This document shows, one piece after another, positions 588 through 54,509 of a stretch of DNA of 64,000 nt (within the stretch, counting starts at the first letter, position 1; each line of letters starts with the position of its first letter). The translations under genes were made by a program, and so were the position numbers. Under the pieces are notes generated by a model that worked only from the letters and a program-made list of their open reading frames with translations, had not been told where the DNA came from and searched no databases. Origin of the DNA: Kiritimatiellia bacterium (GTDB lineage Bacteria; Verrucomicrobiota; Kiritimatiellia; RFP12; UBA1067); NCBI GenBank assembly GCA_050949565.1, contig JBMNFY010000017.1, positions 1,056,001-1,120,000 of the forward strand, read 5' to 3'.

Positions 588-719
588 AGAAGGGAAATGA
601 TACCAAATCATCCCCAAATTCAAAAGTCGGAAATTGAAAAATGAGTTCACTCCGTAGTAAACGATATTGCTCTATCCGGCGCAACGGCAAGCACAAGGCA
701 ACGCAGAACGCCTTCATCA

Positions 720-1477
720 TCACGGCACCCAATCAAGCCAGACACAGAACCGCCACTTGTTTTCATGCCAGAGAACCGTGACATTGCCCCAATCTTTGTC
801 CCCCCCCCCGCCGATGGGCTTGATTCGGGAACCTGCATCCACAAATTGGTGGCCGCTGGCCCATCGGAGCTATATGTGAACCCGAGAATGCTTGGCGGAT
901 AATACGTCTGGTCACACAAGTCCGACATGATTTGCGGTGCAAGATTGACGATCGCGTTTGACTCGGCATTCGCGTCCGGGAGGGCATTCTTAAACATAAT
1001 GTAGTCGGGCAAAGCATTTGACGACATGCCAGGAAAGTTCGTTGACGAGACGAACGCCACAAACTCATAGGCTGCGGCCACGATGTTTGAGTTCGCGGCG
1101 GCGAACGCGAAGGCGTTGGTGTAGGCGTCGCTGAGTTTTTTGGGGATATGTAAAGCCAGACCTGCTGCACCGCTTGACACGACGTTGTCGGGGAAGTCGA
1201 TTGTCTCTGGATAATACGGGGTAATGTCTGGATTGTGAAGATGCGCGACAAAAGCGGGGTCATCAGCACCCAGCCTGAACTGCGTCGCTTTTCCCCACTC
1301 ACTCAAGCATATCCGCAAATCAGCCGTGATCGCCGACTTAGCCGATTCGGAAAGATTGGTGTCAGCAAACGCGAGGTTGATCGCGTTTGAGTGTGTCCCG
1401 TAATAAACGACATTGCTTTGGCCGGTGCAGTAGCAAGCACAAAGCACGGCGGCAATTAAAACGGTCGGTGTTTTCAT
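720..1477 (-). CDS. Locus A partner (immunity-like) paralogue 6, exported; apparent frameshift in a G10 run at 800-809
   Basis: Signal peptide MKTPTVLI..CACYCTGQSNVVYYGT and family hinge SDAYTNAFAFAAANSNIVAAAYEF; changing frame at the C10 run restores the family ending DWGNVTVLWHENKWRFCVWLDWVP* (stop at 720) instead of the ORF-track tail to 647. Confidence 0.8.
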
Positions 1478-1480
1478 GGG

Positions 1481-2230
1481 TTATTGCGGTAGCTCATAAT
1501 GCGGATTCTTTTCCCAAATGCTGAATTTCCACTTCCCGTCATGCCAGATGGCGGTGACTGGCCCCCATTCGATATATCCGCACACGGGGGATGACGAGGG
1601 GATGTAGAGCCACAGATTGGTCGGCGCCGGCCCTTCTGGACTGTAGTGGAAGCCGAGAACGCTCGGCGGATAGTAGGATGACCCATGAACGGAATTTGTC
1701 AGGTCGTGGAACGCCAACTGATATAACTGCGGTGTGGCTTGGTTGAACAGGAAGTAATTTGCTATTTGGTTGGAGGTGACGCTTAAAAAATTGGTTGAGG
1801 AGACGAATGCCACGAATTCATAGGCTGCGGCCACGATGTTGGAGTTGGCGGCGGCGAACGCGAAGGCGTTGGTGTAAGCGTCGCTGAGTTTTTTGGGGAT
1901 ATGTAAAGCCAGACCTGCTGCACCGCTTGACACGACGTTGTCGGGGAAGTCGATTGTCTCTGGATAATACGGGGTAATGTCTGGATTGTGAAGATGCGCG
2001 ACAAAAGCGGGGTCATCAGCACCCAGCCTGAACTGCGTCGCTTTTCCCCACTCGCTCAAACACACCCGCAAATCAGCCGTGATCGCCGACTTAGCCGATT
2101 CGGAAAGATTGGTGTCAGCAAACGCGAGACTGATCGGGCTTGCGTTCGTCCCGTAGTAAACGACGTTGCTCTGCCCGGCGCAATGGCAAGCACAAAGCAT
2201 AACGGTAATTAAAACGAATTTCGTTTTCAT
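1481..2230 (-). CDS. Locus A partner paralogue 5, exported, 249 aa
   Basis: Signal peptide, GQSNVVYYGTN, central hinge, WHDGKWKF end motif. Confidence 0.85.
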   Translation of the reverse strand: MKTKFVLITVMLCACHCAGQSNVVYYGTNASPISLAFADTNLSESAKSAITADLRVCLSEWGKATQFRLGADDPAFVAHLHNPDITPYYPETIDFPDNVVSSGAAGLALHIPKKLSDAYTNAFAFAAANSNIVAAAYEFVAFVSSTNFLSVTSNQIANYFLFNQATPQLYQLAFHDLTNSVHGSSYYPPSVLGFHYSPEGPAPTNLWLYIPSSSPVCGYIEWGPVTAIWHDGKWKFSIWEKNPHYELPQ

Positions 2231-2242
2231 GTCAGTATTCCC

Positions 2243-2581
2243 CTATGGCAGAACAGGGCGTCTTTTGACGTACTTGTCTGTGTTGGGCCCCACGTAAATG
2301 CAGGGGCGGTTGAGATTGCGGTTGATGTCCGTGGACAGCACCGGATTGCCATCAAGTTGCAAAGCGCGGATGAACGGATAAACATCTTGATCTCTGTGGC
2401 TTTTTGCTGACGAGGGTATCCCCAGTGAATCGAATGGTGCGTACAGGTCGGCTGTCCCTGCCGCGATCGGAGCAGTAATGAGTTGTCCTTGGTCGTCATA
2501 CATCGCCTGGTGCCCATGCTTGTCGGACACCGGGTTTGAACGCATCTCGTACTTCGCGTCATGGTGCAAATACGTGTCCAT
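2243..2581 (-). CDS. Orphan C-terminal tip cassette (AMOP-like), near-identical to the tip of 6073-8193
   Basis: MDTYLHHDAKYEMRS...HGHQAMY...AAGTADLYAPFDS.GIPSSAKSHRDQDVYPFIRALQLDGNP...RRPVLP aligns with the last ~110 aa of the 706-aa protein. Confidence 0.8.
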   Translation of the reverse strand: MDTYLHHDAKYEMRSNPVSDKHGHQAMYDDQGQLITAPIAAGTADLYAPFDSLGIPSSAKSHRDQDVYPFIRALQLDGNPVLSTDINRNLNRPCIYVGPNTDKYVKRRPVLP

Positions 2582-2616
2582 GGGTTAAAAAACAAAAAAA
2601 CAGGTGTCTTGCGTTC

Positions 2617-3393
2617 TCACGGCATCCATTCATTCCAAGAACAAAACACCCATTTGCCATTGTGCCAGAGAACGGAATAACCTGACCACTCCATCATATT
2701 GTTAGAGGGAAGTGTCGAACTTGGAATATTTAACCACAGATTGGAGGCCGAAGGTCCCTCTGGGCTATAATAGAAACCCAGAACACTCGGAGTGTAAAAG
2801 GTCTGGTAGCATAACCCCGGAATGATTTGCGATGCAAGGCGAACGATCTCGTTTGACTCGGTGATGGTTTCGGAATACTTGTTTTTAAGCAGGATGTAGT
2901 TCGGCAAAGCGTTCGACGAGAGGGAAACAAAATTACTGGATGAAATGAACGCCACGAACTCGTAGGCGGCGGCCACGACGTTGGAATTTGCGGCGGCGAA
3001 CGCGAAGGCGTTGGTGTAGGCGTCGCTGAGTTTTTTGGGGATATAAAGGGCGGGGCCTGACGGGGTGTTTGTGACACCTTTAGGAAATTCAATGTTTTCT
3101 GGATAATGCGGGCTGATGGAGGGACGTTCAAGATAGCCGATCAGTCCCGGCTCATCGGCACCGAGATCAAGGCTTAAGTACGTCTCTTTGCCCCATTCGC
3201 TCAAACATATCTGCAAATCAGCCACAATAGAAGCCTGCGCTGACACGGAAAGGCTGGCGTCAGCAAACGCGACATTTATCGGGCTTGCGTTTGTCCCATA
3301 GTAAACGACGTTACTCTGTCCGTGACACTGATTGACCAGTAACAACACGGATACGAAGAGGATGGAAGGACTAACTGTTTTTTTGATTTTCAT
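2617..3393 (-). CDS. Locus A partner paralogue 4, exported, 258 aa
   Basis: Different signal peptide but same GQSNVVYYGTN, hinge and WHNGKW motifs; start overlaps the stop of the upstream orphan tip. Confidence 0.85.
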   Translation of the reverse strand: MKIKKTVSPSILFVSVLLLVNQCHGQSNVVYYGTNASPINVAFADASLSVSAQASIVADLQICLSEWGKETYLSLDLGADEPGLIGYLERPSISPHYPENIEFPKGVTNTPSGPALYIPKKLSDAYTNAFAFAAANSNVVAAAYEFVAFISSSNFVSLSSNALPNYILLKNKYSETITESNEIVRLASQIIPGLCYQTFYTPSVLGFYYSPEGPSASNLWLNIPSSTLPSNNMMEWSGYSVLWHNGKWVFCSWNEWMP

Positions 3394-3758
3394 CGTTGTT
3401 TTCCTGTTGGTAAAACGGGGCGCCTTTCGACGTACTTGTCCGTGTTGGGTCCCCTGTAAATGCAGGGGCGGTTGAGATTGCGGTTGATGTATCGAGGGAG
3501 CACCGGATTGCCATCGAGTTGCAACGCTCTAAGAAACGGTTGGACATCTTGTTTCAAATGCTTATTCCCTGTCCTTGCGCGCAACGTGTCGTTGGCATGG
3601 TATGGAGCCGCAATATCCGCCGTTCCTGCGGCGATGGGAGTTTCAATCAGCACGCCATTCGCATCGTATGTGGCCTGATGGCCATGCCCACCTGAAATAG
3701 GACCCGAGCGCATCTCGTACTTCGCGTCATGGTGAAGGAAGGCGTCTTTCGTTCTCAC
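3390..3758 (-). CDS. Orphan C-terminal tip cassette (divergent AMOP-like variant)
   Basis: GTG 3758 overlaps the upstream stop (GTGA); RTKDAFLHHDAKYEMRS...GHGHQATYD...AAGTADIAAPYHANDTLRARTGNKHLKQDVQPFLRALQLDGNP. Confidence 0.75.
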   Translation of the reverse strand: MRTKDAFLHHDAKYEMRSGPISGGHGHQATYDANGVLIETPIAAGTADIAAPYHANDTLRARTGNKHLKQDVQPFLRALQLDGNPVLPRYINRNLNRPCIYRGPNTDKYVERRPVLPTGKQR

Positions 3759-4498
3759 GGCACCCAACTGTCCCAGATGCAGAACTTCCATTTGTTGTCA
3801 TGCCAGATGGCAGGAAAGGCATTCCATCCTTTCTCATCCATATAACGAAGAGGGATCGAGCAAGGAACAAGCATCCATAAATTTGTAGCGGCAGGCCCCT
3901 CGGCACTGTATTGAAAGCCCAGAATGCTGGGGGGGTAAAACGTTTGACACCGTAACTCGGATATGGTCTCCTGTGCGTCGGCAATAATCTCGTTCGAAGT
4001 GGTGTTTTTTTGCAGGACATAATTAGGAAGGTCATTGGAAGAAATGGCAACAAAGTTGCTGGAAGAGACGAACGCCACGAACTCGTAGGCGGCGGCCACG
4101 ATGTTGGAATTTGCGGCGGCGAACGCGAAGGCGTTGGTGTAGGCATCGCTGAGCGCCTTGGGAATCTGCAGTGCGGGGCCTGACGGGGTGTTTGTGACAC
4201 CATCAGGGAAGTCAATGCTTTCTGGATAATGCGGGCTGATAGAAGGACGTTGAAGGTAGCCGATCAGCCCCGGCTCATCGGCACCAAGATCAAGACTTAA
4301 ATACGTCTTTTTGCCCCACTCGCTCAAGCATATCTGCAAATCAGCCACAATGGAGGCTTTTGCCGACACGGAGAGGTTTGGGTCAACGAATGAGACGCTA
4401 ATCGAACTTGCATTGGTTCCGTAGTAAACGACGTTACTCTGTCCGGCACAATGGCAAGCACAAAGCACGGCGACAATTAAAGCACTCGTTGTTTTCAT
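3755..4498 (-). CDS. Locus A partner paralogue 3, exported, 247 aa
   Basis: Signal peptide MKTTSALIVAVLCACHCAG, hinge, WHDNKWKF. Confidence 0.85.
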   Translation of the reverse strand: MKTTSALIVAVLCACHCAGQSNVVYYGTNASSISVSFVDPNLSVSAKASIVADLQICLSEWGKKTYLSLDLGADEPGLIGYLQRPSISPHYPESIDFPDGVTNTPSGPALQIPKALSDAYTNAFAFAAANSNIVAAAYEFVAFVSSSNFVAISSNDLPNYVLQKNTTSNEIIADAQETISELRCQTFYPPSILGFQYSAEGPAATNLWMLVPCSIPLRYMDEKGWNAFPAIWHDNKWKFCIWDSWVP

Positions 4499-4510
4499 GT
4501 CGGTATTTCC

Positions 4511-4570
4511 TCAAGGCAGAACCGGGCGTCTTTCGACGTACTTGTCCGTGTTTGGCCCCGTGTAGATGCC
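4511..4570 (-). pseudogene. Remnant of a tip cassette (last ~18 codons)
   Basis: Encodes IYTGPNTDKYVERRPVLP* followed by the same GGAAATACCGAC-ATG spacer found after the main gene (6061-6072). Confidence 0.75.
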
Positions 4571-4581
4571 TTTCAGGATTC

Positions 4582-5313
4582 TCAATCGCGCCATACGCAG
4601 AATTTCCATTTTCCATCATGCCAGATGGCGGAGAAGGCATGCCATCCTTTCCCGTCCATATAACGAAGAGGGATCGAGCACGGAACAAACATCCATAAAT
4701 TTGTAGCGGCAGGCCCCTCGGTACTGTATTGAAAACCTAGAATGCTGGGGGGGTAGTACGTTTGACACCGTAACTCGGATATAGTTTCCTGTGCATCGGC
4801 AATAATCTCATTTGTGGTGGTGTTCTTTTGCAGGACATAATTGGGTAGGTCGTTAGAGGAAATCGCAACAAAGTTGCTGGACGAGACAAACGCCACAAAC
4901 TCATAGGCCGCAGCCACGATATTGGAGTTCGCGGCGGCGAACGCGAAGGCGTTGGTGTAGGCATCGCTGAGTTTTTTGGGAATATGCAGGGCATAGCCGC
5001 ATAAATCGCTGGACACAACATTATCAGGGAAGTCAAGCGTTTCAGGATAATATGGTGTGATCTTGGGATTGTAAAGATGCGCAACAAAAGCGGGATCATC
5101 AGCGCCAAGCCTGAACTGCGTCGCTCTCCCCCACTCACTCAAGCATATCCGTAAATCCGATGTGATGGCCGATTTAGCGGATTCTGAAAGATTGGTATCT
5201 ACAAACGCGAGGCTGATCGGGCTTGCATTTGTCCCATAGTAAACGACGTTACTCTGTCCGGCACAATGGCAAGCACAAAGCACGGCGACAATTAAAACGG
5301 TCGGTGTTTTCAT
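4582..5313 (-). CDS. Locus A partner paralogue 2, exported, 243 aa
   Basis: Signal peptide, hinge, WHDGKWKF. Confidence 0.85.
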   Translation of the reverse strand: MKTPTVLIVAVLCACHCAGQSNVVYYGTNASPISLAFVDTNLSESAKSAITSDLRICLSEWGRATQFRLGADDPAFVAHLYNPKITPYYPETLDFPDNVVSSDLCGYALHIPKKLSDAYTNAFAFAAANSNIVAAAYEFVAFVSSSNFVAISSNDLPNYVLQKNTTTNEIIADAQETISELRCQTYYPPSILGFQYSTEGPAATNLWMFVPCSIPLRYMDGKGWHAFSAIWHDGKWKFCVWRD

Positions 5314-5319
5314 GGGGTG

Positions 5320-6060
5320 TTACGGTCGAGTATAAAAGGGATTCTTTTCCCAAATGCTGAATTTCCACTTTCCGTCATGCCAGATGGCGGTGACTGGCCC
5401 CCATTCGATATATCCGCACACGGGGGATGACGAGGGGATGTAGAGCCACAGATTGGTCGGCGCCGGCCCTTCTGGACTGTAGTGGAAGCCGAGAACGCTC
5501 GGCGGATAGTAGGATGACCTGTGGACTGAATTTGTCAGGTCGTGGAACGCCAACTGATATAACTGCGGTGTGGCTTGGTTGAACAGGAAGTAATTTGCTA
5601 TTTGGTTGGAGGTGACGCTTAAAAAATTGGTTGAAGAAACAAACGCCACAAACTCATGGGCTGCGGCCACGATGTTGGAGTTGGCGGCGGCGAACGCAAA
5701 GGCGTTGGTGTAGGCATCGCTGAGCGCCTTGGGGATATGCAGAGCCAAACCTGATGCGCCGTTTGACACAACATTTTCAGGGAACATTATGTCTTCGGGG
5801 TAATGCGGACAGTGGGTAGGGTTGTCGATGTATCCGACATACCCCCCCTCGTTCATCATGCGCAATTCGCCCTTCCCCCACTCACTCAAGCATATCCGTA
5901 AATCCGCCGTGATCGCCGATTTAGCGGATTCTGAAAGATTGGTATCTACAAACGCGAGGCTGATCGGGCTTGCATTTGTCCCATAGTAAACGACGTTACT
6001 CTGTCCGGCACAATGGCAAGCACAAAGCACGGCGACAATTAAAGCACTCGTTGTTTTCAT
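5320..6060 (-). CDS. Locus A cognate partner (paralogue 1), exported, 246 aa
   Basis: Directly downstream of the 706-aa gene with an RBS (AAGGA); signal peptide and family motifs. Confidence 0.85.
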   Translation of the reverse strand: MKTTSALIVAVLCACHCAGQSNVVYYGTNASPISLAFVDTNLSESAKSAITADLRICLSEWGKGELRMMNEGGYVGYIDNPTHCPHYPEDIMFPENVVSNGASGLALHIPKALSDAYTNAFAFAAANSNIVAAAHEFVAFVSSTNFLSVTSNQIANYFLFNQATPQLYQLAFHDLTNSVHRSSYYPPSVLGFHYSPEGPAPTNLWLYIPSSSPVCGYIEWGPVTAIWHDGKWKFSIWEKNPFYTRP

Positions 6061-6072
6061 GTCGGTATTTCC

Positions 6073-8193
6073 TTAAGGCAGAACCGGGCGTCTTTCGACG
6101 TACTTGTCCGTGTTGGGTCCCCTGTAAATGCAGGGGCGGTTGAGATTGCGGTTGATGTCCGTGGGCAGCACTGGGTTACCATCAAGTTGCAAAGCGCGGA
6201 TGAACGGATAAACATCTTGATCTCTGTGGCTTTTTGCTGACGAGGGTATTCCCCGTGAATCGAATGGTGCGTACAGGTCGGCTGTCCCTGCCGCGATCGG
6301 AGCAGTAATGAGTTGTCCTCCTATGTTGTACATCGCTTGGTGCCCATGCCCGCCGGACGTCGGTTTTGAACGCATCTCGTACTTCGCGTCATGATGAAGG
6401 AAGGTGTTTTTCGCTTCGGGAGCATGCCATCGTCCGCCGATGCCGAAAGGATTGGGTTCCGGATCGACGGCATTTGTGGTTCCATTGGAAATATTGATGG
6501 TGATGCTGGCAAACGGGCGCGGCAGGTTTGTCGTCCAACTGATGTCGGCGTTTTGCGCGTACCAATCATCGAATTTTGCCTGTGTGTCAGACCTGTTGAC
6601 GACCACCCAAAGCTTGTCGAAAATAACGCCTGGTTCCGAATCATTGGGCTTGTAGTGCAGCTTGACCAGCGAAATGGCGGGCTTAAATTCCTTAGGATTT
6701 TCGCCAAAGATCAGTTCGCCGTTGCCGTTGACCGTCAGGTTGTCGGAGGTGAAGCTCAGCTTGTCAATATTAGGCATGTTCAGATAGCAGTCGTCCAGCA
6801 GGTCGAACAAGTCAATCTTCTCGCCGGCGCTCCAGACCACGCCGAGGCAGTGCTCGGTGGGGTTGAGGTCGGTCTTGTCGGGCCCGATGTAGGGGAAGAT
6901 GTTGCGGGTGTTGACGGCGGAGTGACTGAAGCCGATGTCCCAACGCGGCCCGCCGTCACAGATGCAGCCGATCCCGCCGCAAAGGGATGAATCGTGGTAA
7001 CCCGGCTCGTGCCAATAGTTTTGTTCCGCGCCGAAGACCCCGCCGACGGCCTCGCACAGCCTGACCCGGAAGATGACCCTGCCGTGCAGGAAGGGGTAGG
7101 CCGCGTTCGCCACGGGCTGGGTCACCGTGCACTCGATGCAGGGCTGCCGCGCAAAGAAGGTATCCAGCGCGTCCTCTTTGGGGATGAGCGGGGTGTCGCC
7201 CTTGACGCCGTTCATCGCCATGCTGACGGTATCGCAGCCGATCATCGCGTAATCCGGCCAGGTGCACGAGTCATTTTCGCACAGGCAGTACCAGCCGCTC
7301 CCGCCCAGGAACACTGTGCCATCCGTCATGCGCAGGGGCTGGACCGTGACGGACGGGGCCGGTGTATCCAGAGGGCGGACGGGACCGGCGGGCGGCGGCG
7401 CGAGCAGGAGGAGGCCGTTCACGCTGTCCGGGTTGCCGGGCGGGGGCGGCGGCGTCTGGCCGGCCGTGAAAACGACGGTGTTGGCGTGCGCCGGAAGGAC
7501 GGACATTTCGCAGAGCCACGGCCCGTTGGTCGCGCCGGGGAGTTCCGCGAGCGTTCCGGGCAGGGGGTCGAGCGTGAGCGTGACCGGCCCGCCGTAGGCC
7601 GCCCGGAGGCGCACGCGGCCGGTCCCGGCCCGGACCGGGAAGCTGTTGGTCGTGAGCGCGTCGCCCACCGTGAGCCACACGGGCCGGTCGGTGCGCGTCT
7701 CCAGCCAGAAATCCACGGTGCCCGCCTCCTCCGAGTAGGGCGGCGTGTTGTAGACGAATCCCGAGTAGGCCACGGCAAAACCCTCCGTGTTGGTGGCGGT
7801 CAGCCTCTGCCACGTCTGCGCGTCCCAGCCCAGCCACGCCAGCCACTGGGCGTGGCTGACCGTCGGCACGACCCGGAAGGCGGCGTCCAGCCCCGCGCCG
7901 CGCTTCTCGAGGTCCGACCAGCCGTCGCCCATGGTCGAGAAGGTGCGCGGGTCGGAGCCGAAGGCGAACTCCTCCAGGTCGGTCAGCCCGTCGCCGTCCC
8001 GGTCGAGGTGGGAGTCCGCGACGGCCGGGTCGCTGAACGTCCTCCGCTCCCAGGCGTCGGGGATGCCGTCGCCGTCGGTGTCCGCCGCGGGCAGCCCCGC
8101 GTCCTGATACCACTGGGGAAGGGCGGCCCGCCCCGGCAAGACCGCGGCCAGCAAACCGGCCGCTGCGCAACAGATTGGAAGCATGGTTTTCAC
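6073..8193 (-). CDS. Large exported protein: DxDGDG Ca-binding (thrombospondin type-3-like) loops, Cys-rich middle, variable AMOP-like C-terminal tip
   Basis: Signal peptide; DTDGDGIPDAWE and DRDGDGLTDLEE; several Cys pairs; C-terminus duplicated as orphan cassettes downstream; GC content visibly drops below ~6790. Confidence 0.8.
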   Translation of the reverse strand: MKTMLPICCAAAGLLAAVLPGRAALPQWYQDAGLPAADTDGDGIPDAWERRTFSDPAVADSHLDRDGDGLTDLEEFAFGSDPRTFSTMGDGWSDLEKRGAGLDAAFRVVPTVSHAQWLAWLGWDAQTWQRLTATNTEGFAVAYSGFVYNTPPYSEEAGTVDFWLETRTDRPVWLTVGDALTTNSFPVRAGTGRVRLRAAYGGPVTLTLDPLPGTLAELPGATNGPWLCEMSVLPAHANTVVFTAGQTPPPPPGNPDSVNGLLLLAPPPAGPVRPLDTPAPSVTVQPLRMTDGTVFLGGSGWYCLCENDSCTWPDYAMIGCDTVSMAMNGVKGDTPLIPKEDALDTFFARQPCIECTVTQPVANAAYPFLHGRVIFRVRLCEAVGGVFGAEQNYWHEPGYHDSSLCGGIGCICDGGPRWDIGFSHSAVNTRNIFPYIGPDKTDLNPTEHCLGVVWSAGEKIDLFDLLDDCYLNMPNIDKLSFTSDNLTVNGNGELIFGENPKEFKPAISLVKLHYKPNDSEPGVIFDKLWVVVNRSDTQAKFDDWYAQNADISWTTNLPRPFASITINISNGTTNAVDPEPNPFGIGGRWHAPEAKNTFLHHDAKYEMRSKPTSGGHGHQAMYNIGGQLITAPIAAGTADLYAPFDSRGIPSSAKSHRDQDVYPFIRALQLDGNPVLPTDINRNLNRPCIYRGPNTDKYVERRPVLP

Positions 8194-8203
8194 GTCATCG
8201 CAC

Positions 8204-9188
8204 TCATTTTAGGAGAAGCACCGACCCCCACACAAGCCCGTAGCTGAGTCCCGCGTCGATCGCGGCCCGGCGCTGCTCCGGCGAGGCGGGGTGCGGGGCA
8301 AGACCCCAGCGGATCGAGAGATAGTTGGCCACGCCCGCCCGGACATCCGCGTCCGGCGGCGTGTTGAACCCCACGATCTCCGCGATCTCCCCCCCGCCAG
8401 CCGCGATTCCAGGCGGGGCGTCCGGCTGTGCCGCCGAAAAACATTTCGGTGAGATCGGCGGGACTTTCGAAGTCGACGGCGACAACCTGCCACTGCTGCG
8501 GGATGAATTGCTGTGTCAGCGACAGCTCCGCCGCCCCCGGCTCCGTCTGGCGGCTGCCGTCGGAAACGAGCCGCAGGCGCGCCGTTTCCGGCGCGTCAAC
8601 GAGCGTGGCGAGGTCGGCGGCGTCCCCGCGCGTCACGAGCATGAGGGTCTGGACCGTGACCGCCGCGACATTGGAGAAACAGACGGGGGAGACGGGGTTC
8701 GTCGCGTTGCCCGCGAACGAGAGCGCGTTGAGCCTGGGCGTGGCGGGCACGGCGGCGGGCAGGCTCCAGCCCGGCTCGCCGCTGAACGCGGCCGCGACCC
8801 TGGGGTCGGCGGCGAGTGTGGCCTGGAGCACAATGCGGGAGGGTTCGGACTGGACGCCGGACGGTCCGCCCTGCGTCGCGGGCAAGGGCGGCTGCGTTGA
8901 GGGCGAGGCGGGCTGCGCCTGTTGTTGCTGAGCGACCGCGCCGCCCGCCGGCTGTCCGGTGTGCGGCGACGCGGCGGTGCTGTTCACGTTGGTCGGCTTC
9001 TGCGCGACCACCGTGCAATACACGCATAACACGGCCATGATGGCCTTCGTGGAAGGCGGCAAGGTTGCCCAGTTCCGCCATACGTCGCGGAACCACCCGC
9101 GCTCCAAACCGAGGGCGATGAACCAGAGCGTCCACAGGATGCTGACCGTGATCACGCAATAAAGGTATGAAGGAGTTGGCATATCCAA
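8204..9188 (-). CDS. Membrane-anchored leader protein with LamG/ConA-like C-terminal segment; apparent frameshift at 8389-8395
   Basis: Two N-terminal hydrophobic segments and a P/Q/S linker; removing one G from the G7 run joins ...WNRGWRG to EIAEIVGFNTPPDADVRAGVANYLSIRWGL...WGSVLLLK*, a LamG-like GxIAExxxF...YLxxxWGL pattern. Confidence 0.65.
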
Positions 9189-46716: not shown

Positions 46717-47694
46717 TCACGCCGCTTTGCGCACCTTTCTCCGCCGCAAGGCAAGCCACGCCGCTACCACTGCGACAATCCCCGTGCCGACAGCGATAGC
46801 GACCTTCACGGGGCTTCTAGCGGGCGCGTCACCCGGTAACGGCGACAGATCGGGAAAACGCTTGCGCAGGTCAGTGCGTTTTCGGGGGGGGGTGGCCTCA
46901 ATTGCCTCTTTGATTGGAAGATAGTTTTTTCTCTTCAACTCATTTTCTTTATCCTCGTCCAGTATCCTGCTCCATAACGATAAGCGCTGTTCGCTAATTT
47001 TGTAGCCGTAACAGTGTTTGACCAGAAAATCATCCACCCATGAGGCTTCGCTTGCATACGATGTGATTTGCGTATATGCCATAAGAAGCGACAAAAGCCG
47101 TTCTTCGGTTTCATCAGAAACAGAGTGGTTTGCAATCGCGGACTCCATTTTTCCCAAGAACAGAGGGGTGACCCTGGATCGCCAAAATCCCTTATCAGCG
47201 TTGATGCCAAAGGCTTTTCTCATGAACTCAATGCACTCCTCTACACTCGCGATATTGACATAGACCTCCGCAGCGGCAGAACGGATGGATCTTCGAATTT
47301 CAGGATCAAGGCTCTTTTCCTCCAGATAAGGCAGAAGCGAGCGGTCACCGGAGTGCGCCACAAGTTGCAACAGCCTGACCGCGTTGTTGGCAATTGATAT
47401 CCGTCCAGTGTTTTTCACGTAGGCGATATAGCCGTCAATCGCCTCCTTAGCAAGGTCGAGGATGCGCCGCTTGTCAACGCCTGCCTCCTCGCACCGCTTC
47501 TCCATCATCCGATAGTAGTCCGCCACGGTCGGCAGGTTCTGTTGGTGGGGGTCGCCCTCATTATCCGCCTCCATAAACACGATGCCTTCAAGCATGTCGC
47601 GTATGGCCTCGTCGTCGAAGGGCCTTGCGACCGGATTTTGAGCTGCGGACACCAGCGTGGCGACCGTGACGTAAAACAACAACACCTTTCTCAT
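46717..47694 (-). CDS. Locus B partner 3
   Basis: RBS GGAGGAGG; signal peptide; conserved C-terminal anchor. Confidence 0.82.
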   Translation of the reverse strand: MRKVLLFYVTVATLVSAAQNPVARPFDDEAIRDMLEGIVFMEADNEGDPHQQNLPTVADYYRMMEKRCEEAGVDKRRILDLAKEAIDGYIAYVKNTGRISIANNAVRLLQLVAHSGDRSLLPYLEEKSLDPEIRRSIRSAAAEVYVNIASVEECIEFMRKAFGINADKGFWRSRVTPLFLGKMESAIANHSVSDETEERLLSLLMAYTQITSYASEASWVDDFLVKHCYGYKISEQRLSLWSRILDEDKENELKRKNYLPIKEAIEATPPRKRTDLRKRFPDLSPLPGDAPARSPVKVAIAVGTGIVAVVAAWLALRRRKVRKAA

Positions 47695-47704
47695 ATCCTC
47701 CTCC

Positions 47705-48424
47705 TTACTCGCTGACCGGATTCTGATGACAGCCGGACAGGCCGACGTTCCTCAACTCCAACTCATCGGACGGATCACCCGTCGTGCTGAAATTGCGATA
47801 ACCCCACACACTCCCTGACGGAATGTCGGCCCGGGGGAGCGGCACGTTCGTGTAGCCCCCCGGACTCATGATCAGGCGGGCGACCACGAACTTCTGCATC
47901 AGCCCCGGCTCGTAATAGCCGCCGCACCAGTCGGACGGCAGCATTTCCGGCGCGCTCACGTCGGGGATGGAGACCTTGGTGCCCTGCGGAAGGATCGTTA
48001 TTTGGGGATAGATGTCAGCGAGGCCACAGGCGTGCAGCACCTCGTGCGCGATTGTGGTCGCATCGCCGTCTTGGGCTATGGCGATGCCTTTGATGCGCCT
48101 GACACCCTTGAGATTCACATTGTTATCCCCCGTGATCGTCTGTACGAAATACAGTTCCACGCCGCCGGTGCCCGACGAGCTATCCATGAGCGCGTCGAAT
48201 TCGTACACGGCCGCCGGCGTGGTGTTGCTCGGGTTCAGCCACGCGGCATTGTCAGCGTAATGCACCGTCCCGCTCTGGACCAGCGTCAGCCCGCGTTGCC
48301 ACAGGATCTTGTTGGCATCCGCCAAGAGGCCGGGGATCTCGGCGGCATCGCGGGCGGCAATCATGCCCAAGTCGTCTCTCACGATCCAGACGGTGACGGG
48401 CACGTTGACGGCGGGGCACGACAT
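47705..48424 (-). CDS. Orphan metzincin tip cassette 2 (long form)
   Basis: [16 protein letters not shown]...[29 protein letters not shown] matches the main gene; TIAHEVLHACGLADIY...RLIMSP. Confidence 0.8.
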   Translation of the reverse strand: MSCPAVNVPVTVWIVRDDLGMIAARDAAEIPGLLADANKILWQRGLTLVQSGTVHYADNAAWLNPSNTTPAAVYEFDALMDSSSGTGGVELYFVQTITGDNNVNLKGVRRIKGIAIAQDGDATTIAHEVLHACGLADIYPQITILPQGTKVSIPDVSAPEMLPSDWCGGYYEPGLMQKFVVARLIMSPGGYTNVPLPRADIPSGSVWGYRNFSTTGDPSDELELRNVGLSGCHQNPVSE

Positions 48425-48435
48425 TGTCCATGCTG

Positions 48436-49269
48436 TCACGCAGCTTTGCGCACCTTTCTCCGCCGAACGGCGAGCCACGCCGCTACCACTGCAACAATCC
48501 CCGCGATGATGGCGAACGCGACTTTCACAGGGCTTCTAGCGGGCGCATCATCCGGCAACGGCGGCAGATCGGGAAAACGCTTGCGCAAGTCGATGCGCTG
48601 TCTTGGGGGAATTTTGTCGAAGTGCGCCTTGATGGGATGAAACGTATTCGTCACCCATTCGTTGCCCTCCGTGGCGAACCGTGTGAGGCAAGCGCGTTGA
48701 ACACTGTTCGTGTACTGGGGCACCGCTTGTAGCATATAAAGGTTGATACGGTTTGCGGCGTCTCGCACATCGGTTTTTTGCATGATGGTCAGCAAAACGG
48801 TATGCACGCGCGACAGGGCATCGCTGGAGAGTCTGTTTTTCACCTCCGGCGTCAGCTTGTCGAGGTACTGTTGAATCAATAGCCACTTTCCCTGCTTGAC
48901 AGTGGGATCATCACAATATTTGGCTAAGAACAACACGCTATCCTCCACGTCCGCGATATCGACATACGTTTCTGCGGCGGCAGATCGGATAAGTTCATGC
49001 GTTTCAGGATCAAAACTTTTCTCCTTCAGGAACGGGAGTACTTCGCGTCCACCTTTTTGCCCGATGTTCGCCATCAGCGCGGCGGCGGCACCCACATTGT
49101 AGTTCGACCCGGCCTGAAAACTCGCTTCAAACTTACTGTATACCTCTAGCATTTCAGACAGCGGGCGGCGTGAATAATCCGCGTACTGGCTGGCCGTAAC
49201 CGTGGCGGAGTAAAGAATGATCGCGCAAACGATCAGGCGATACGATACTTGACGTGCATTCATTTTCAT
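48436..49269 (-). CDS. Locus B partner 2
   Basis: Close paralogue of 49734-50573 with the same anchor. Confidence 0.82.
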   Translation of the reverse strand: MKMNARQVSYRLIVCAIILYSATVTASQYADYSRRPLSEMLEVYSKFEASFQAGSNYNVGAAAALMANIGQKGGREVLPFLKEKSFDPETHELIRSAAAETYVDIADVEDSVLFLAKYCDDPTVKQGKWLLIQQYLDKLTPEVKNRLSSDALSRVHTVLLTIMQKTDVRDAANRINLYMLQAVPQYTNSVQRACLTRFATEGNEWVTNTFHPIKAHFDKIPPRQRIDLRKRFPDLPPLPDDAPARSPVKVAFAIIAGIVAVVAAWLAVRRRKVRKAA

Positions 49270-49275
49270 CCCTCC

Positions 49276-49737
49276 TTAGTGGCTTCCCGGGGTTCTTATG
49301 ATCGACGACTGGCCTACCTTGGCTGGACCCAGGATGGTCGGCGCTTCGCCGCCGAGCCACTCGTGATGCCATCCCCGGATATTTCCCGACGGCAGATCGC
49401 CACCTCTGGTCTCTTGCGGATCGAGGCGCGAGCACATCACGAGCCTTTTGATCAGGCCGTGCTGGAGCACCCACGGGTTGTAATAACCGCCGCCCCAGTC
49501 GGCAGGGATGCTCTGTTCCGCGACCAGCTCCAAAAGAGGGTTCCCTTGGCCGTCGGCGATGTAGATGTCCTCCAGCCCGCAGTCATGCAATACCTCGTGC
49601 GCGATAGCCCAGCTGCCTTCGCCGCTTGCGATCGCGATGCCCTTCGGGTGGCGCAGACCGGCATCCGCCCTTCCGTTCAGTGTCCGAACGAAGTAGAGTT
49701 CCACCGCGTTGCCCATGCTGTTCGTGCTGTCCATCAT
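49276..49737 (-). CDS. Orphan metzincin tip cassette 1
   Basis: [17 protein letters not shown] identical to the main gene; [16 protein letters not shown]...RLVMCS. Confidence 0.8.
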   Translation of the reverse strand: MMDSTNSMGNAVELYFVRTLNGRADAGLRHPKGIAIASGEGSWAIAHEVLHDCGLEDIYIADGQGNPLLELVAEQSIPADWGGGYYNPWVLQHGLIKRLVMCSRLDPQETRGGDLPSGNIRGWHHEWLGGEAPTILGPAKVGQSSIIRTPGSH

Positions 49738-50573
49738 CGCGGTGTTTCACGCACCCTTCTCCGCCGAACGGCGAGCCACGCCGCTACAGCGCACACCGCG
49801 AGCGCAACAATCCCCGCGACGACAGCGATGGCGACCTTCACGGGGCTTCTAGCGGGCGCGTCATCCGGCAACGGCGGCAGATCGGGGAAACGCTTGCGCA
49901 GATCAATGCGCTGTTTCGGGGGAATTTTGTCGAAGTGCGCCTTGATGGGATGAAACGTATTCGTCACCCAAGCGTTGCCCTCCGTGGCGAACCGTGTGAG
50001 GCAAGCGCGTTGAACACTGTTCGTGTACTGGGGCACCGCTTGTAGCATATAAAGGTTGATACGGTTTGCGGCGTCTCGCACATCGGTTTTTTGCATGATG
50101 GTCAGCAAAACGGTATGCACGCGCGACAGGGCATCGCTGGAGAGCCTGTTTTTCACCTCCGGCGTCAGCTTGTCGAGGTACTGTTGAATCAACAACCACT
50201 TCCCCTTTTTGACAGTGGGATCATCACAATATTTGGCCAAGAACAACACGCTCTCCTCCACATCCGCGATATTGACATACGCTTTCGCGGCGGCAGAACG
50301 GATAAGCTCGTGTGTTTCGGGATCGAAGCTTTCTTCCTCCAAAAACGGGAGCACTTCGCGCCCGCCCTTTTTCCCGACAGCGACCATCAGCGCGGCAGCG
50401 GCACCCACGTTATAGTTCGATCCGGCCTGAAAATTCGCTTTGAACCCACTGTATTCCTCAAACATTTTCGACAGCGGGTAACGCGAATAATCCATGTAAC
50501 GGCTGGCCACAGCCGACGCGGAGTAAAGAATGACCGCGCATATCAGGCAATATACAACTCGACGTGTATTCAC
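49734..50573 (-). CDS. Locus B cognate partner 1
   Basis: Immediately downstream of the main gene with RBS AAGGAGA; signal peptide and C-terminal TM anchor. Confidence 0.82.
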   Translation of the reverse strand: MNTRRVVYCLICAVILYSASAVASRYMDYSRYPLSKMFEEYSGFKANFQAGSNYNVGAAAALMVAVGKKGGREVLPFLEEESFDPETHELIRSAAAKAYVNIADVEESVLFLAKYCDDPTVKKGKWLLIQQYLDKLTPEVKNRLSSDALSRVHTVLLTIMQKTDVRDAANRINLYMLQAVPQYTNSVQRACLTRFATEGNAWVTNTFHPIKAHFDKIPPKQRIDLRKRFPDLPPLPDDAPARSPVKVAIAVVAGIVALAVCAVAAWLAVRRRRVRETPR

Positions 50574-50585
50574 CTCTATCTCTCC

Positions 50586-53500
50586 TTAGTAACTTCCCGG
50601 GGTTCTTATGATCGATGACTGGCCCACCTTGGCGGGACCTAAAATGAGCGATGTTCCGCCGCCGCCCGGACCGTGATGCCACCCACGGACATCCCCCGAC
50701 GGCAGGTCGGTACCAACGTCTTCCTGCGAGGTGAGAAAAGAGCGCATGATGAGCCTTTTGATCAGGCCGTGCTGGAGTACCCACGGATTGTAATAACCGC
50801 CGCCCCAGTCAGCGGGAATGCTCTGCTCCGCAACCAGCTCTAAAAGAGGATTCCCTTGGTCATCCGCAATATAGATGTCCTCCAGCCCACAGTCGTGAAA
50901 CACTTCATGCGCGATAGTTCTGCTGCCCGCACCGCTTGCAATCGCGATCCCCTTCGGGCGGCGAACCCCAGCGGCGTCCCCGCCTTCCAGTGTTTCCACG
51001 AAGTACAGTTCCACCGCATTGCCCATGCTGTTCGTGCTATCCATCATCGCGTCGATCACCGCGTTGGTCTCCGCAAGGACGTTTGTGTGGTTCCGCCATG
51101 CGTCATTGTCCAGATAGCGCACCGCTCCGCTCTGCACCAGTGTCAAGCCGCGTTGCCACAGGATTTTGTTGGCATCCGCCAGAAGGCCGGGGATCTCGGC
51201 GGCGTCGCGGGCTGGTTCGGTTTGATCAGTCTTTCTCACGATCCAGACGGTGACGGGCACGTTGACGGCGGGGAGGACGGTGCCGGTGAAATAGGGCCGG
51301 ACGTGGGGCGGCGTGATGACGAGGCCCTTGATGTCGACCTCCAGCCGGAAGGCACCGGTTGATGTCGCGGTCACGGCGATCTCGGGGCCGGTGCTGCCGC
51401 CGGCGAAGGCGACGCGCCCCGCGCCCTCCTTGATCGTCCAGGTGATGTCGGCGTCGGGCACGGTGCCGCCGGGCACCTCGACCTTGAAGCGGGCGGTGCC
51501 GCCCAGCGGCATGCCGCTGGTGTTGTACACGTGCCCGTCGGCGTCGGTCACGGTGATGACCACTTCGGCGATGGTTTGCATCGCCTCGAACGCGAGGTTG
51601 GTCGAGACGCTGCCGGGGAGGGCGCCGGGCAGTCCGTAGGCGACCGTGAAGAGGCGCTGCCCCGTCAGGGCGGCGGCGTAGCGCACCTCGGCGGTGCGGT
51701 TGGTCCCGGCGGTGTATTTGGCCAGCCACTCGGATGCCGCGTAGGAGTCCTGCAGCGGCTCGTACTGCCCGGTCTGGCGGTTTCTGACTCTGGCCGAGGC
51801 GGCCCCCGTGTGCCCGCTGAACGTGAGCGTGCCGCCGCCGTCGGCGGGGACGCGGGTCGTGACGGACAGGATGTTGGTGTGGCCGGCCTGCACGCGGGGC
51901 GGGGCGTCCGCCGGGGCGTTGGAGAGGCACACGCCCAGCCCGGCGACCGTGTAGCGGCCGCGGCTGAAGAAGCGCCCCGCCTGCCAGGTGAAGACGTCCG
52001 CCCCGGCCGAGGCGCTGGGGGCCGTGCCGGTGACGGTGAAGGTGCCCGAGGTCGCGGCGAAGCCTTCGAGCGGCGCGGCGGAGAGGTTCGGGGTGCAGCG
52101 GAAGATCACGGCGGGCACGGGAGAGCTGCCGCCGGCGACGGTCTGCGTGCAGCCGCAGAGCATGCAGGCGCCGTCCAGCGGCGAGAGGCCCGCCCCCGGC
52201 GCGGGCGCGGCCGCGACCGTGTCGGGCGCGCCGCCCGCCAGCAGGAGCCGGCGGGGGCGGCTGACCGTGCTGGAGGAGCCGGCGTCCGGATCTTCTGGAT
52301 CGTACGGGGCGTCCGTGTAGTAGGGGTCGAGGCACGTCGGGCACGTGCAGACGCCCGGCGATGCGCAGCGGCACAGGCAGTTGTTCGGCTCCGGGCAGCA
52401 CGGGCACTTGCCGGGAGGGGGATCGTTGAAGGGATCGCCCTCTTCCCCGCCCGCGAACACGCAGAGGTGGGCGGGCACCGTGTCGGTGTTCCCGCCGAAC
52501 GCTTTCGCGGTGTTGTTTGTCAGGACGACCCCCAGCTTGACGGGGACCTGCACCGTGTGCATGCCGGGCGTCTCCGCCAGATGGGGGAACTTGCCCTTGA
52601 GGTATGCCTCGCTCACGCTGAACGCCGGGGAGAGGTCGGGGGCGGTGCCGAAGCCGAAGGCCGCGACGCTCTTCGGCCGGGCGCCGACGATCCCCACGTT
52701 CACCGTGTCCCGCCCGGTGTGCGGGCAGAGCGGCACGGGAGAGAACGCGTAATTGAAGCTGTGCGTGGTGCCGTGCTTGGCGTTGCCCGGCGGGGGGGAG
52801 GCGGGCGCGGGCGCCGGGGGCGCGGCAGCGGGCGCGGGGGCGCCCGCCGGGGCGGGCACCCGGAAGACGTTGTCCGCGTCTTCGACGACGGTGAGGGAGG
52901 AGGCCGCGGCCACCGTGACCGCGGCGTCGGCGGCGGAGGTCCCGGGGCCGGGGACCAGCGCGAACGGGACGTCCACGCCCCGGGGGATGGCGACGCGCGA
53001 GAGCTGCGCCGTGCCCGGCGCGACGGGCACGATGACCTCGCCGATGCGCAGCGCCGCCACGCCCGCGGAGGCCTCCAGCCGGGTCTCCAGCGTCAGCAGG
53101 GCCAGCCCCGCGCCGCCCTCCATCCACGGGGGCGGCGCGGAGGCGAGCCGGGCCGCGCCGACGACCCGCCAGAAGTCGTTGGTGCCGTCCCCCAGGCTGT
53201 CGGGGGTGAGGGGATCGGTGCCGTATTTGAGGACCTCGTCGCCGTCGCTGAGGCCGTCGCGGTCCGTGTCCCACTGGCGCGGGTCGGTGCGGTATACCAT
53301 CAGCTCCTCCCAGTCGGTGAGGCCGTCGCCGTCGGTGTCGGGGACGGCGGGGTCGAGGCGTCCGAAGGCGGTCCAGCGCAGGGCGAGCGCCGCGCCGCCG
53401 GGCGGGAGGGCGGCGGAGAGCGGCGCGCCGTCCGCGAAGGCGAAGGCCTCGCCGCCGCCCGCGTCCGCCGCGCCGATGAGCCAGTTGGTGACGGCGGAGA

Positions 53501-54509
53501 GGTCCGCGCCGGGCCGGGGGCGGATGAAGTACTCGAAATCGCCGTCCGGGTGGAGGCGGCACTGGAGGTCGGCCTTGGCCTCCTCGATCCGCCCGAGCAT
53601 CAGGCTGTTCCAGGTGACGGTGTGAAGGCCGCCGGTCCCGGCCGCGGACCAGAGCCGCCCCTCCGGCGGCAGGAGGCCCGAGGGGGTCTGCAGCACCGAG
53701 AGGACGCGGTTGGAGGCGGGATCGGGGAAGGCGGGCGCGGCGGGCGCGAGCCGGCCGGGCAGGCCGTCCAGCAGGAGCATGCCCGACGGCGCGGCGCACA
53801 CGGCGGTGACGAAGCGGGAGTAATCCTCGAGGCCGCCCGCGTTGAAGCCGGACGGCAGGGGCACCCACCAGGCGTCGTCGTGGACGCCGTGCCCCGAGAC
53901 GTAATCGGTGACGGCCGCGCCGGCGGGCGGCGCGAAGTCGTGGGCGGCGTTGGTCGCGGCGTGCGTGAGCGCGAAGCATGCGTCGTACTGCGCCTGCGTC
54001 AGGCGGTTCGTGTAACGCGGCGGCGGGACGAAGCCGTCCGCCGGGGGCGGCATGAGGCAGGCGGGCGGCACGCCCCGGGTGGCTGACGCGGGCAGCTGGC
54101 CCCGGGCGGACGGCGCGGACGCCTGGCCCTGGGCGGATGACGGGGACGCCTGGCCTTGCGTGGATGATGCGGACGGCTGGCCCTGGGCGGGTGACGCGGG
54201 CGGCTGGCCTTGCGTGGATGACGAGGACGACTGGCCCTGGGCGGGCGGCGAAGGCGGCCCGGGCTTCGAGCCTCCGTAGCGGACCGCCTCCGCGAACATG
54301 AAGAGCACGGCCAGGACGACGAGCACGGAGGTGCGCCTGACCCAGTCGCGGAAGCGCCGGGTCTCCGCGAGGAGATACCGGAGCGCGCCGCACGCGGCGG
54401 GCAGGAGCGCGGCCGCGGCCAGGAACAGGCAGCACGCGCAGACGAGAAGATGCCGCGCGCGGAGCAGCGCCTCTTCGTTCAGGAGTGAAAAGATTTTGGC
54501 GGTGACCAC
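50586..54509 (-). CDS. Locus B large membrane-anchored/exported protein (1307 aa) with DxDGDG loops, Cys-rich region and C-terminal metzincin-type peptidase tip
   Basis: Two N-terminal hydrophobic helices then YGGSKP; 9-aa QGQ repeats; [12 protein letters not shown] and [12 protein letters not shown]; CPCCP..CLCRC..CTCPTC; [16 protein letters not shown] plus downstream LIM. Confidence 0.85.
54080..54245 (-). repeat. 27-bp (9-aa) degenerate tandem repeat in the trunk linker
   Basis: [54 protein letters not shown]; copy C (~32855-32995) has one unit fewer. Confidence 0.75.

Follow-up and report, generated by a model that had tools for sequence, protein, structure and literature searches.

A probable homologue of the animal AMOP domain at the variable tip of a cassette locus in a Kiritimatiellia genome

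The window considered here is a stretch of 64,000 nucleotides from a Kiritimatiellia bacterium (assembly GCA_050949565.1, contig JBMNFY010000017.1, positions 1,056,001 to 1,120,000 of the forward strand), and our subject is the C-terminal tip of the protein encoded by the gene P0001 (6073..8193, minus strand; positions are those of the window), together with the array of partial tip copies and partner genes that lies downstream of it. We are highly confident that this tip is a divergent, almost cysteine-free homologue of the animal AMOP domain. With moderate confidence, we further favor the view that the tip and the product of the gene directly after it form a pair, a swappable effector acting on the cell envelope and its cognate immunity-like partner.

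The likeness to AMOP had been proposed in the initial annotation of the window. The motifs quoted there (W..W...LPRP, HHDAKYEMRS, HGHQAMY-NIG-GQLIT-API-AAGTADL, H-RDQ-DVYPF and KYVERRP) are all present, in the stated order, within the last 169 residues of the protein; two of the spacings had to be corrected, the gap between the two Trp residues being eight residues instead of five and that between His and DV three instead of two. Because the tip belongs to a family that numbers 393 representatives among 1.84 billion proteins at a threshold of E≤1e-3, and still 236 when this is tightened to E≤1e-10 and 52 at E≤1e-30, the motif pattern in P0001 is not a product of chance. Direct searches starting from the window sequence gave nothing: the tip has no Pfam match at E≤10, the whole of P0001 no AMOP match at E≤1, phmmer of the tip against the PDB returns nothing at E≤10, and the Pfam AMOP model (PF03782) finds no match at E≤10 over the organism's own genome. 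These blanks are not evidence against homology, because the single window sequence is too diverged, and the plain hmmscan of the tip against Pfam AMOP that had been suggested as a check accordingly failed; profiles of relatives, or structure, were needed. A profile of 30 bacterial relatives of the window tip (A1) has human Isthmin-1 (ISM1; 9C6T) as its top match in the PDB at E 9.2e-5, the next match standing at E 0.13, and for a profile of nine tips of a more distant, RHS-type subtype (A4) 9C6T is the sole PDB match at E≤1, with E 4.4e-10. Individually, five of the 30 members of A1 reach the Pfam AMOP model (best E 2e-4), and none of 64 distant representatives of the family does so at E≤1e-3. 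In the ESM Atlas, AMOP-bearing clusters come up at ranks 1 and 3 with scores of 0.88 and 0.86, which we take as a lead only; in one Atlas cluster of bacterial proteins, 26% of the members bear AMOP.

Alignment of the bacterial profile with Isthmin-1 by HMMER reproduces the correspondence proposed there, namely LP..(CPC), A.Y(E/C)(M/I)RS, Q(A/C)(M/C)Y, QLIT..(A/G)AGT(A/P)(D/N)L and H...DV(Y/L)P(F/W). It also agrees with the earlier remark that the domain looks like AMOP with its cysteines stripped out, since the five ISM1 cysteines that the alignment covers stand opposite P/A, E and A/M of the window protein. In the ISM1 structure report, eight cysteines joined in four disulfides (C1-C8, C3-C6, C4-C9 and C5-C7) are described as strictly conserved in animal AMOP domains (PMC12000326). 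The window tip is about 167 to 169 residues long and in its 169-residue form contains one Cys and six His, and therefore none of the four AMOP disulfides can form. As to membership of the Pfam family, the window tip lies below the curated cut-off (25 bits) and is without the conserved cysteines; by fold and by profile homology it groups with AMOP.

The predicted structure leads to the same place. An AlphaFold2 model of the tip built on the A1 alignment has a mean predicted local distance difference test score (pLDDT) of 87.3 and a predicted template modeling score (pTM) of 0.82. Foldseek against known structures, the comparison with isthmin-1 called for at the outset, returns two chains of 9C6T alone at E≤0.001 (E 2.5e-4 for 9c6t_B, with a Foldseek probability of 1.00, and 3.0e-4; the next match has E 0.13), so that the model matches the ISM1 AMOP structure and no other. 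VIA, which is independent of Foldseek and covered 48,161 chains, pairs model residues 29-195 with residues 296-441 of 9c6t_B at Z 10.6, with a root mean square deviation of 3.0 Å and 25% identity over 128 aligned residues, and its next match has Z 4.9. A nuclease, deaminase, peptidase or other toxin fold was considered for the tip, and in neither comparison does any such fold come near the ISM1 match. One might suppose that the likeness to AMOP is convergent or accidental and that the bacterial domain has an unrelated fold; the silence of the window sequence, taken alone, against Pfam AMOP and the PDB at E≤10, the modest template modeling scores of the Foldseek matches (0.44 and 0.39) and the loss of all four disulfides would fit such a supposition. 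We consider it very improbable, because three independent lines each point to AMOP: the profile matches, the above-cut-off Pfam matches of intermediates that keep some of the cysteines, and the structure all single out this one family, with the order of the motifs constant throughout.

Across both subtypes of the family, seven polar residues (H600, R608, Q619, D639, H656, D660 and R702 in the numbering of P0001) and two tyrosines (Y622 and Y698) are invariant. Judged from the pattern of conservation, the H600/R608/Q619/D639/H656/D660/R702 cluster is a probable catalytic or ligand site. That the tip is an enzyme rather than a binder is a more tentative suggestion, to which we give somewhat less than even weight.

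P0001 is an open reading frame (ORF) of 706 residues starting at GTG; its true start is probably the ATG at 8184, which gives 703 residues, and the database form of the protein, also of 703 residues, begins at Met4 and is 100% identical over the region compared. From its N-terminus the protein consists of a hydrophobic leader, TSP3-type calcium-binding repeats, a cysteine-rich middle part and the AMOP-like tip, and Pfam finds TSP3_bac (E 2.5e-8) and the Binary_toxB calcium-binding domain (E 5.1e-6) in it. The AMOP-fold domain, supported by the VIA alignment, Foldseek and the profile match to 9C6T, corresponds to residues ~540-706 (6076..6576, minus strand). Its C-terminal two-thirds (residues 596-706; 6076..6408, minus strand) are the swappable part, which tblastn and the tip alignment show to be repeated in orphan copies.

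Relatives of the tip sit on quite different scaffolds. Among the 401 genomes of the phylum scanned with the A1 profile, 18 contain the domain, which in roughly half of them belongs to a more distant subtype, here called type 2, that includes the RHS-borne tips; type 1 is the subtype of the window. The Pfam AMOP model alone detects three of the 401 genomes over its cut-off, all at loci also found by A1. The two subtypes clearly form one family (A1 against A4 in hhalign: probability 99.9, E 2.5e-32, over 149 columns), and a tree separates them cleanly with support of 100/98; type-2 tips have three to nine cysteines each and type-1 tips one to four. Two full-length type-2 proteins (1696 and 1957 residues) contain RHS repeats (E 4.1e-45 and 4e-10) and at their C-terminus a Pfam AMOP match of 29.8 and 30.7 bits, against the cut-off of 25. 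In both, the AMOP part begins past the end of the RHS core, the place typical of toxins, and some of the cysteine pattern known from animals survives in it (LPDCPC or LPECPKC, and NQCIY). RHS_repeat and/or PF25023, which we take to be the teneurin-like YD-shell family, occur in nine of 13 longer type-2 homologues; all 13 are bacterial and none eukaryotic, the word pre-filter of this search making it uninformative about animals. The first ORF downstream of type-2 tips has at least two hydrophobic 19-mers in seven of nine loci, as expected of a small membrane protein, and one RHS locus continues to an RHS orphan bearing an unrelated tip. Over the family as a whole, the scaffolds include RHS, NIDO/Ig, Glucodextran_B, fn3 and transglutaminase proteins, and three bacterial proteins join a Pfam NIDO domain to an AMOP-like tip (P0064, with E 2.9e-30, P0121 and P0194). 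The domain is not always C-terminal: in P0131 (552 residues) it is internal, at residues 116-291, with DUF6973 (E 5.8e-16) coming after it.

Downstream of P0001, on the same minus strand, six paralogous genes of about 245 codons with N-terminal leaders, i1 to i6, are interleaved with orphan tips and a tip remnant. Within each i gene, which is a mosaic, the leader is followed by a variable segment (V1), then by a conserved middle and finally by a C-terminal half (V2) that again varies. The tip copies were located by tblastn. Directly after the tip of P0001 comes i1 (5320..6060), an exported protein of 246 residues with a V2 of type alpha, then i2 (4582..5313), which has no tip ahead of it and resembles an orphan immunity gene, and the last 18 codons of a tip 3' end (4514..4567, 94% identical). 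Beyond i3 (3755..4498) lies orphan tip 2 (3408..3773, within the ORF 3390-3791), whose variable core is of another type and which matches residues 587-706 at 68% identity; after it comes i4 (2617..3393) with its distinct V2 type. Orphan tip 3 (2246..2578, within the ORF 2243-2581, whose ATG falls at the homology boundary) is 88% identical to residues 596-706, and the V2 of the following i5 (1481..2230) is 95% identical to that of i1. The array stops at i6 (647..1477), whose C-terminal end is aberrant, and the gene beyond is unrelated. The three tip copies counted in the initial annotation are thus the full tip and two partial ones, with the 18-residue remnant in addition.

Both ends of the orphan tips are conserved: they start at HHDAKYEMRS, inside the AMOP domain, and finish at LQLDGNPV...DKYVERRPVLP, and the variable part is a core of about 40 residues around the invariant AGTAD motif. 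The GC content is 0.67 in the N-terminal part of P0001 against 0.49-0.55 in the tip and cassettes. The genome holds seven tip copies in three loci (the window, locus B on contig C1 and locus C elsewhere on C17), four of them partial orphans, two in the window beside the remnant and two in locus B; the three full-length paralogues are 78-84% identical overall and differ in their tip cores.

An i gene directly follows six of the seven tips in this genome. In six other genomes, a hidden Markov model (HMM) of the i family matches directly downstream of type-1 tips, in two further genomes the ORF downstream of the tip aligns with the i family below HMM significance, and in one metagenome-assembled genome at NCBI a tip protein and an i protein have adjacent locus tags. 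At E≤1e-3 the i family numbers 231 members; none of them has a Pfam family, and 'hypothetical protein' is the sole name among the 120 rows listed. For the six tip-partner pairs of this genome, identity between tip cores and identity between the V2 segments of the partners go together with r 0.98 over 15 comparisons, a value that is descriptive and amounts to no statistical test because all six pairs belong to a single genome and share a history of duplication. For V1, which lies between tip and V2, the correlation with the tip core is -0.07 over the same number of comparisons. A V2 matched to the tip while the intervening V1 is shuffled would be the expected outcome of selection on a cognate interaction. 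The description of the tip as polymorphic in the initial annotation is supported by the cassette array, by the RHS-borne relatives and by this co-variation with the downstream gene.

We propose that in bacteria the AMOP fold might serve as a C-terminal effector module, placed either at the toxin position of RHS/YD-shell proteins (type 2) or at the end of Sec-exported TSP3 proteins (type 1). The locus in the window would then be built in the manner of a polymorphic toxin locus, with a full-length gene, a cognate exported partner, silent cassettes of tip plus partner, and extra partners without tips. Recombination at HHDAKYEMRS and at the conserved 3' end could replace the variable core and, along with it, the partner that matches, the orphans acting as a reservoir. 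Since all the candidate partners are either exported or embedded in a membrane, the tip presumably has an extracytoplasmic site of action, namely the envelope or the periplasm of a target cell. Let us assume, further, that the C-terminal half of the partner has an NTF2-like fold; this half might bind and block the variable loops beside the invariant H600/R608/Q619/D639/H656/D660/R702 cluster. We favor the effector interpretation because of the RHS toxin position, the exported or membrane-bound partners, the accumulation of spare cassettes and extra partner genes, and the presence in the window of a second tip family, with an HExxH motif, in the same layout. Of the elements of this scheme, the analysis demonstrates the homology, the fold, the anatomy of the locus, the co-variation and the existence of relatives on RHS proteins, whereas we infer toxicity, neutralization by the partner, the site of action, the enzymatic nature of the tip and the switching of cassettes.

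Several points weigh against this proposal. The descriptive character of the tip-V2 correlation is one, and the tip core also follows the adjacent leader of the partner (r 0.92), through linkage. By Pfam, P0001 contains no RHS (RHS_repeat at E≤1), PAAR, contact-dependent inhibition (CDI) or other recognized delivery module, and no secretion system was identified for it, delivery genes near the locus (type VI and others) not having been searched for. The last orphan tip of locus B (C1 57674-58018) is without a partner and is followed by an unrelated zinc-ribbon-like gene. The model of i1 has pLDDT 77 and no Foldseek match at E≤0.001, and the NTF2-like assignment of its C-terminal half (residues ~118-238) rests on many VIA rows with Z of at most 5.2, a weak hint of fold. 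The spare cassettes are all of one tip family and replace part of the domain only, which fits variation of specificity equally well whether it serves escape from immunity or recognition. At the sites invariant in bacteria, ISM1 keeps Arg, Tyr, His and Asp and has K for H600, H for Q619 and N for D639, so that three of the seven invariant polar residues are missing from it. Finally, the animal AMOP domain is described, in the available part of the ISM1 report, as a module for adhesion or binding and not as an enzyme (PMC12000326).

The last of these considerations suggests a different role, in which the tip would be a polymorphic recognition or adhesion module that binds the exported i protein on sister cells, the cassettes diversifying the specificity of self/non-self discrimination or of cohesion. 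The exchange of loops of a single fold by the orphans is what one would anticipate here, and the co-variation of tip and V2 is expected under recognition as well. In other bacteria the tip is found together with NIDO, Ig-like and fn3 domains, and the only NCBIfam matches of P0001, in its TSP3 region, are weak ones to MtsD (cell-cohesion) and CglD (a gliding lipoprotein), far below their cut-offs. Against such a role, relatives of the domain stand at the RHS toxin position and are followed by small membrane proteins and, in one case, by an RHS orphan with another tip; the seven invariant polar residues resemble an active site more than a variable binding face; and the extra partners without tips are better explained as collected immunities. 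All told, we judge recognition or adhesion unlikely to be the function of the tip.

Less likely still is a third explanation, which we regard as improbable, that the tip is a secreted enzyme of the usual kind, or a domain that binds glycans, in an anaerobe that degrades polysaccharides, with the downstream genes as accessories (chaperones or inhibitors) and the array as the outcome of tandem duplication and decay, having no part in switching or conflict. Some family members do carry carbohydrate-related domains (Glucodextran_B in four and Laminin_G_3 in one of the 64 distant members), i6 and one i copy of locus B look decayed, and the locus is represented in RNA libraries, contigs from two of which span the tip and reach 27 and 28 of 30 bins, though contigs are no proof of transcription. 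The patchy distribution of the domain (18 of 401 genomes), the lower GC content of tip and cassettes compared with the scaffold, the mosaic partners whose V2 follows the type of the tip, the second tip family of the window with the same layout, and the RHS-borne relatives are all difficult to reconcile with this explanation.

Comparison with known systems helps to place the effector-partner arrangement that we favor. With the AMOP domain of Isthmin-1 (9C6T) the window tip shares the order of motifs (LP, Y..RS, ..Y, LIT..AGT, H...DV.P(F/W)) and an extracytoplasmic setting, and differs in being bacterial, in having a single cysteine, in falling below detection by Pfam and in coming with a putative cognate partner gene and spare cassettes. 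With RHS/YD-shell toxins it shares, through two RHS proteins of the same phylum, the toxin position of its family and the succession of tip, small downstream gene and orphans, whereas P0001 has neither RHS repeats nor an RHS core and presents the tip on a TSP3 scaffold with a Sec leader, its orphans are partial and of a single family, and its partners are exported proteins of about 245 residues instead of small membrane proteins. The type VI amidase Tae3 and its immunity protein Tai3 are a periplasm-acting pair of interbacterial competition; an exported candidate immunity protein would fit a target in the envelope in the same way, and the C-terminal half of the i protein gives Z 3.9 against Tai3 in 4hz9_B, too weak for kinship, while the fold of the window tip is unrelated to known amidases.

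The AMOP domain occurs also in animal MUC4 and SUSD2, and NIDO and AMOP occur together in animal MUC4 and Mesh. The NIDO-bearing P0064, P0121 and P0194 recall this combination, with the differences that Ig-like and TSP3 segments separate the two domains in the bacterial proteins and that a vWD domain was not seen in them; P0001 is without NIDO. These likenesses raise the speculative thought that the animal AMOP domain of isthmins, MUC4, SUSD2 and Mesh might descend from an effector that bacteria used against one another, with NIDO perhaps acquired in the same transfer, in which case the H-R-Q-D-H-D-R set might be an ancestral catalytic site for a substrate of the envelope or the extracellular space, and the animal form a disulfide-stabilized and partly disarmed version of it. 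We think this descent rather doubtful; if true, it would provide the first biochemical handle on the molecular function of AMOP.

The first AMOP structure, that of ISM1, dates from 2025, and in the available part of its description streptavidin is the sole bacterial protein mentioned, as a resemblance of fold (PMC12000326). Outside the subscription journals, which our search did not cover, we found no paper tying AMOP to RHS proteins, polymorphic or bacterial toxins, prokaryotes or a bacterial origin, and none on polymorphic toxins in Kiritimatiellia. On AMOP and horizontal gene transfer, nothing relevant turned up in a body of literature represented mostly by titles and the beginnings of abstracts. 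The databases implicitly hold part of the finding, because AMOP already appears in precomputed Pfam annotation on at least one RHS protein and in the ESM Atlas cluster mentioned above. What we describe is thus a known fold combined with a known locus logic, of which the combination and the subtype were not found described in the literature searched. Until now AMOP has been regarded as an adhesion module of animals whose mechanism is unknown, and a bacterial family of this size alters that picture: it offers a genetically tractable setting for the role of the fold, invariant residues to mutate and a hypothesis for the origin of the animal domain. In microbial ecology, the conflict systems of Kiritimatiellia from anaerobic digesters would gain a tip family and a family of exported partners, both of them new.

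Close homologues bear names that place the organism in Kiritimatiellia. The stretch is present in 20 of 24 listed public sequencing runs, from anaerobic digester, biogas and sludge metagenomes, and six of the 20 are RNA libraries; these data are contigs, which cannot show transcription, strand or switching. Within 600-8300 of the window, some public contigs join module boundaries of different i paralogues, 4410 to 3296 in two DNA runs and 5170 to 1350 in one RNA and one DNA run. Such joints may be alternative mosaics that belong to other strains or to the paralogous loci B and C.

A second cassette locus in the window (46717-54509, minus strand) follows the same logic, with P0003 (1307 residues) ending in an HExxH metalloprotease-like tip. 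Leader-bearing proteins of about 277 residues (49734-50573 and 48436-49269, both minus strand) come after this tip, interleaved with orphan HExxH tips (49276-49737 and 47705-48478, likewise on the minus strand). P0002 (29355-33389, minus strand) also ends in an HExxH tip and is 79% identical to P0003 over its residues 421-1337. The first ~400 residues of its ORF are rich in Arg, Pro and Gly, at 70-74% GC, and look like an over-extended frame and not like real protein.

Upstream of P0001, at about 8207-9107 on the minus strand, lies a gene for a membrane-anchored protein with a Pro/Gln-rich region, whose counterpart in locus B shows 96% identity. The gene is split over two reading frames at about 8391/8392, which could reflect a frameshift, a sequencing error or a programmed shift. 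In the distant homologue P0046 (959 residues), a similar N-terminal region, with a transmembrane segment and a Pro/Gln-rich part, precedes a P0001-like body, as judged by eye.

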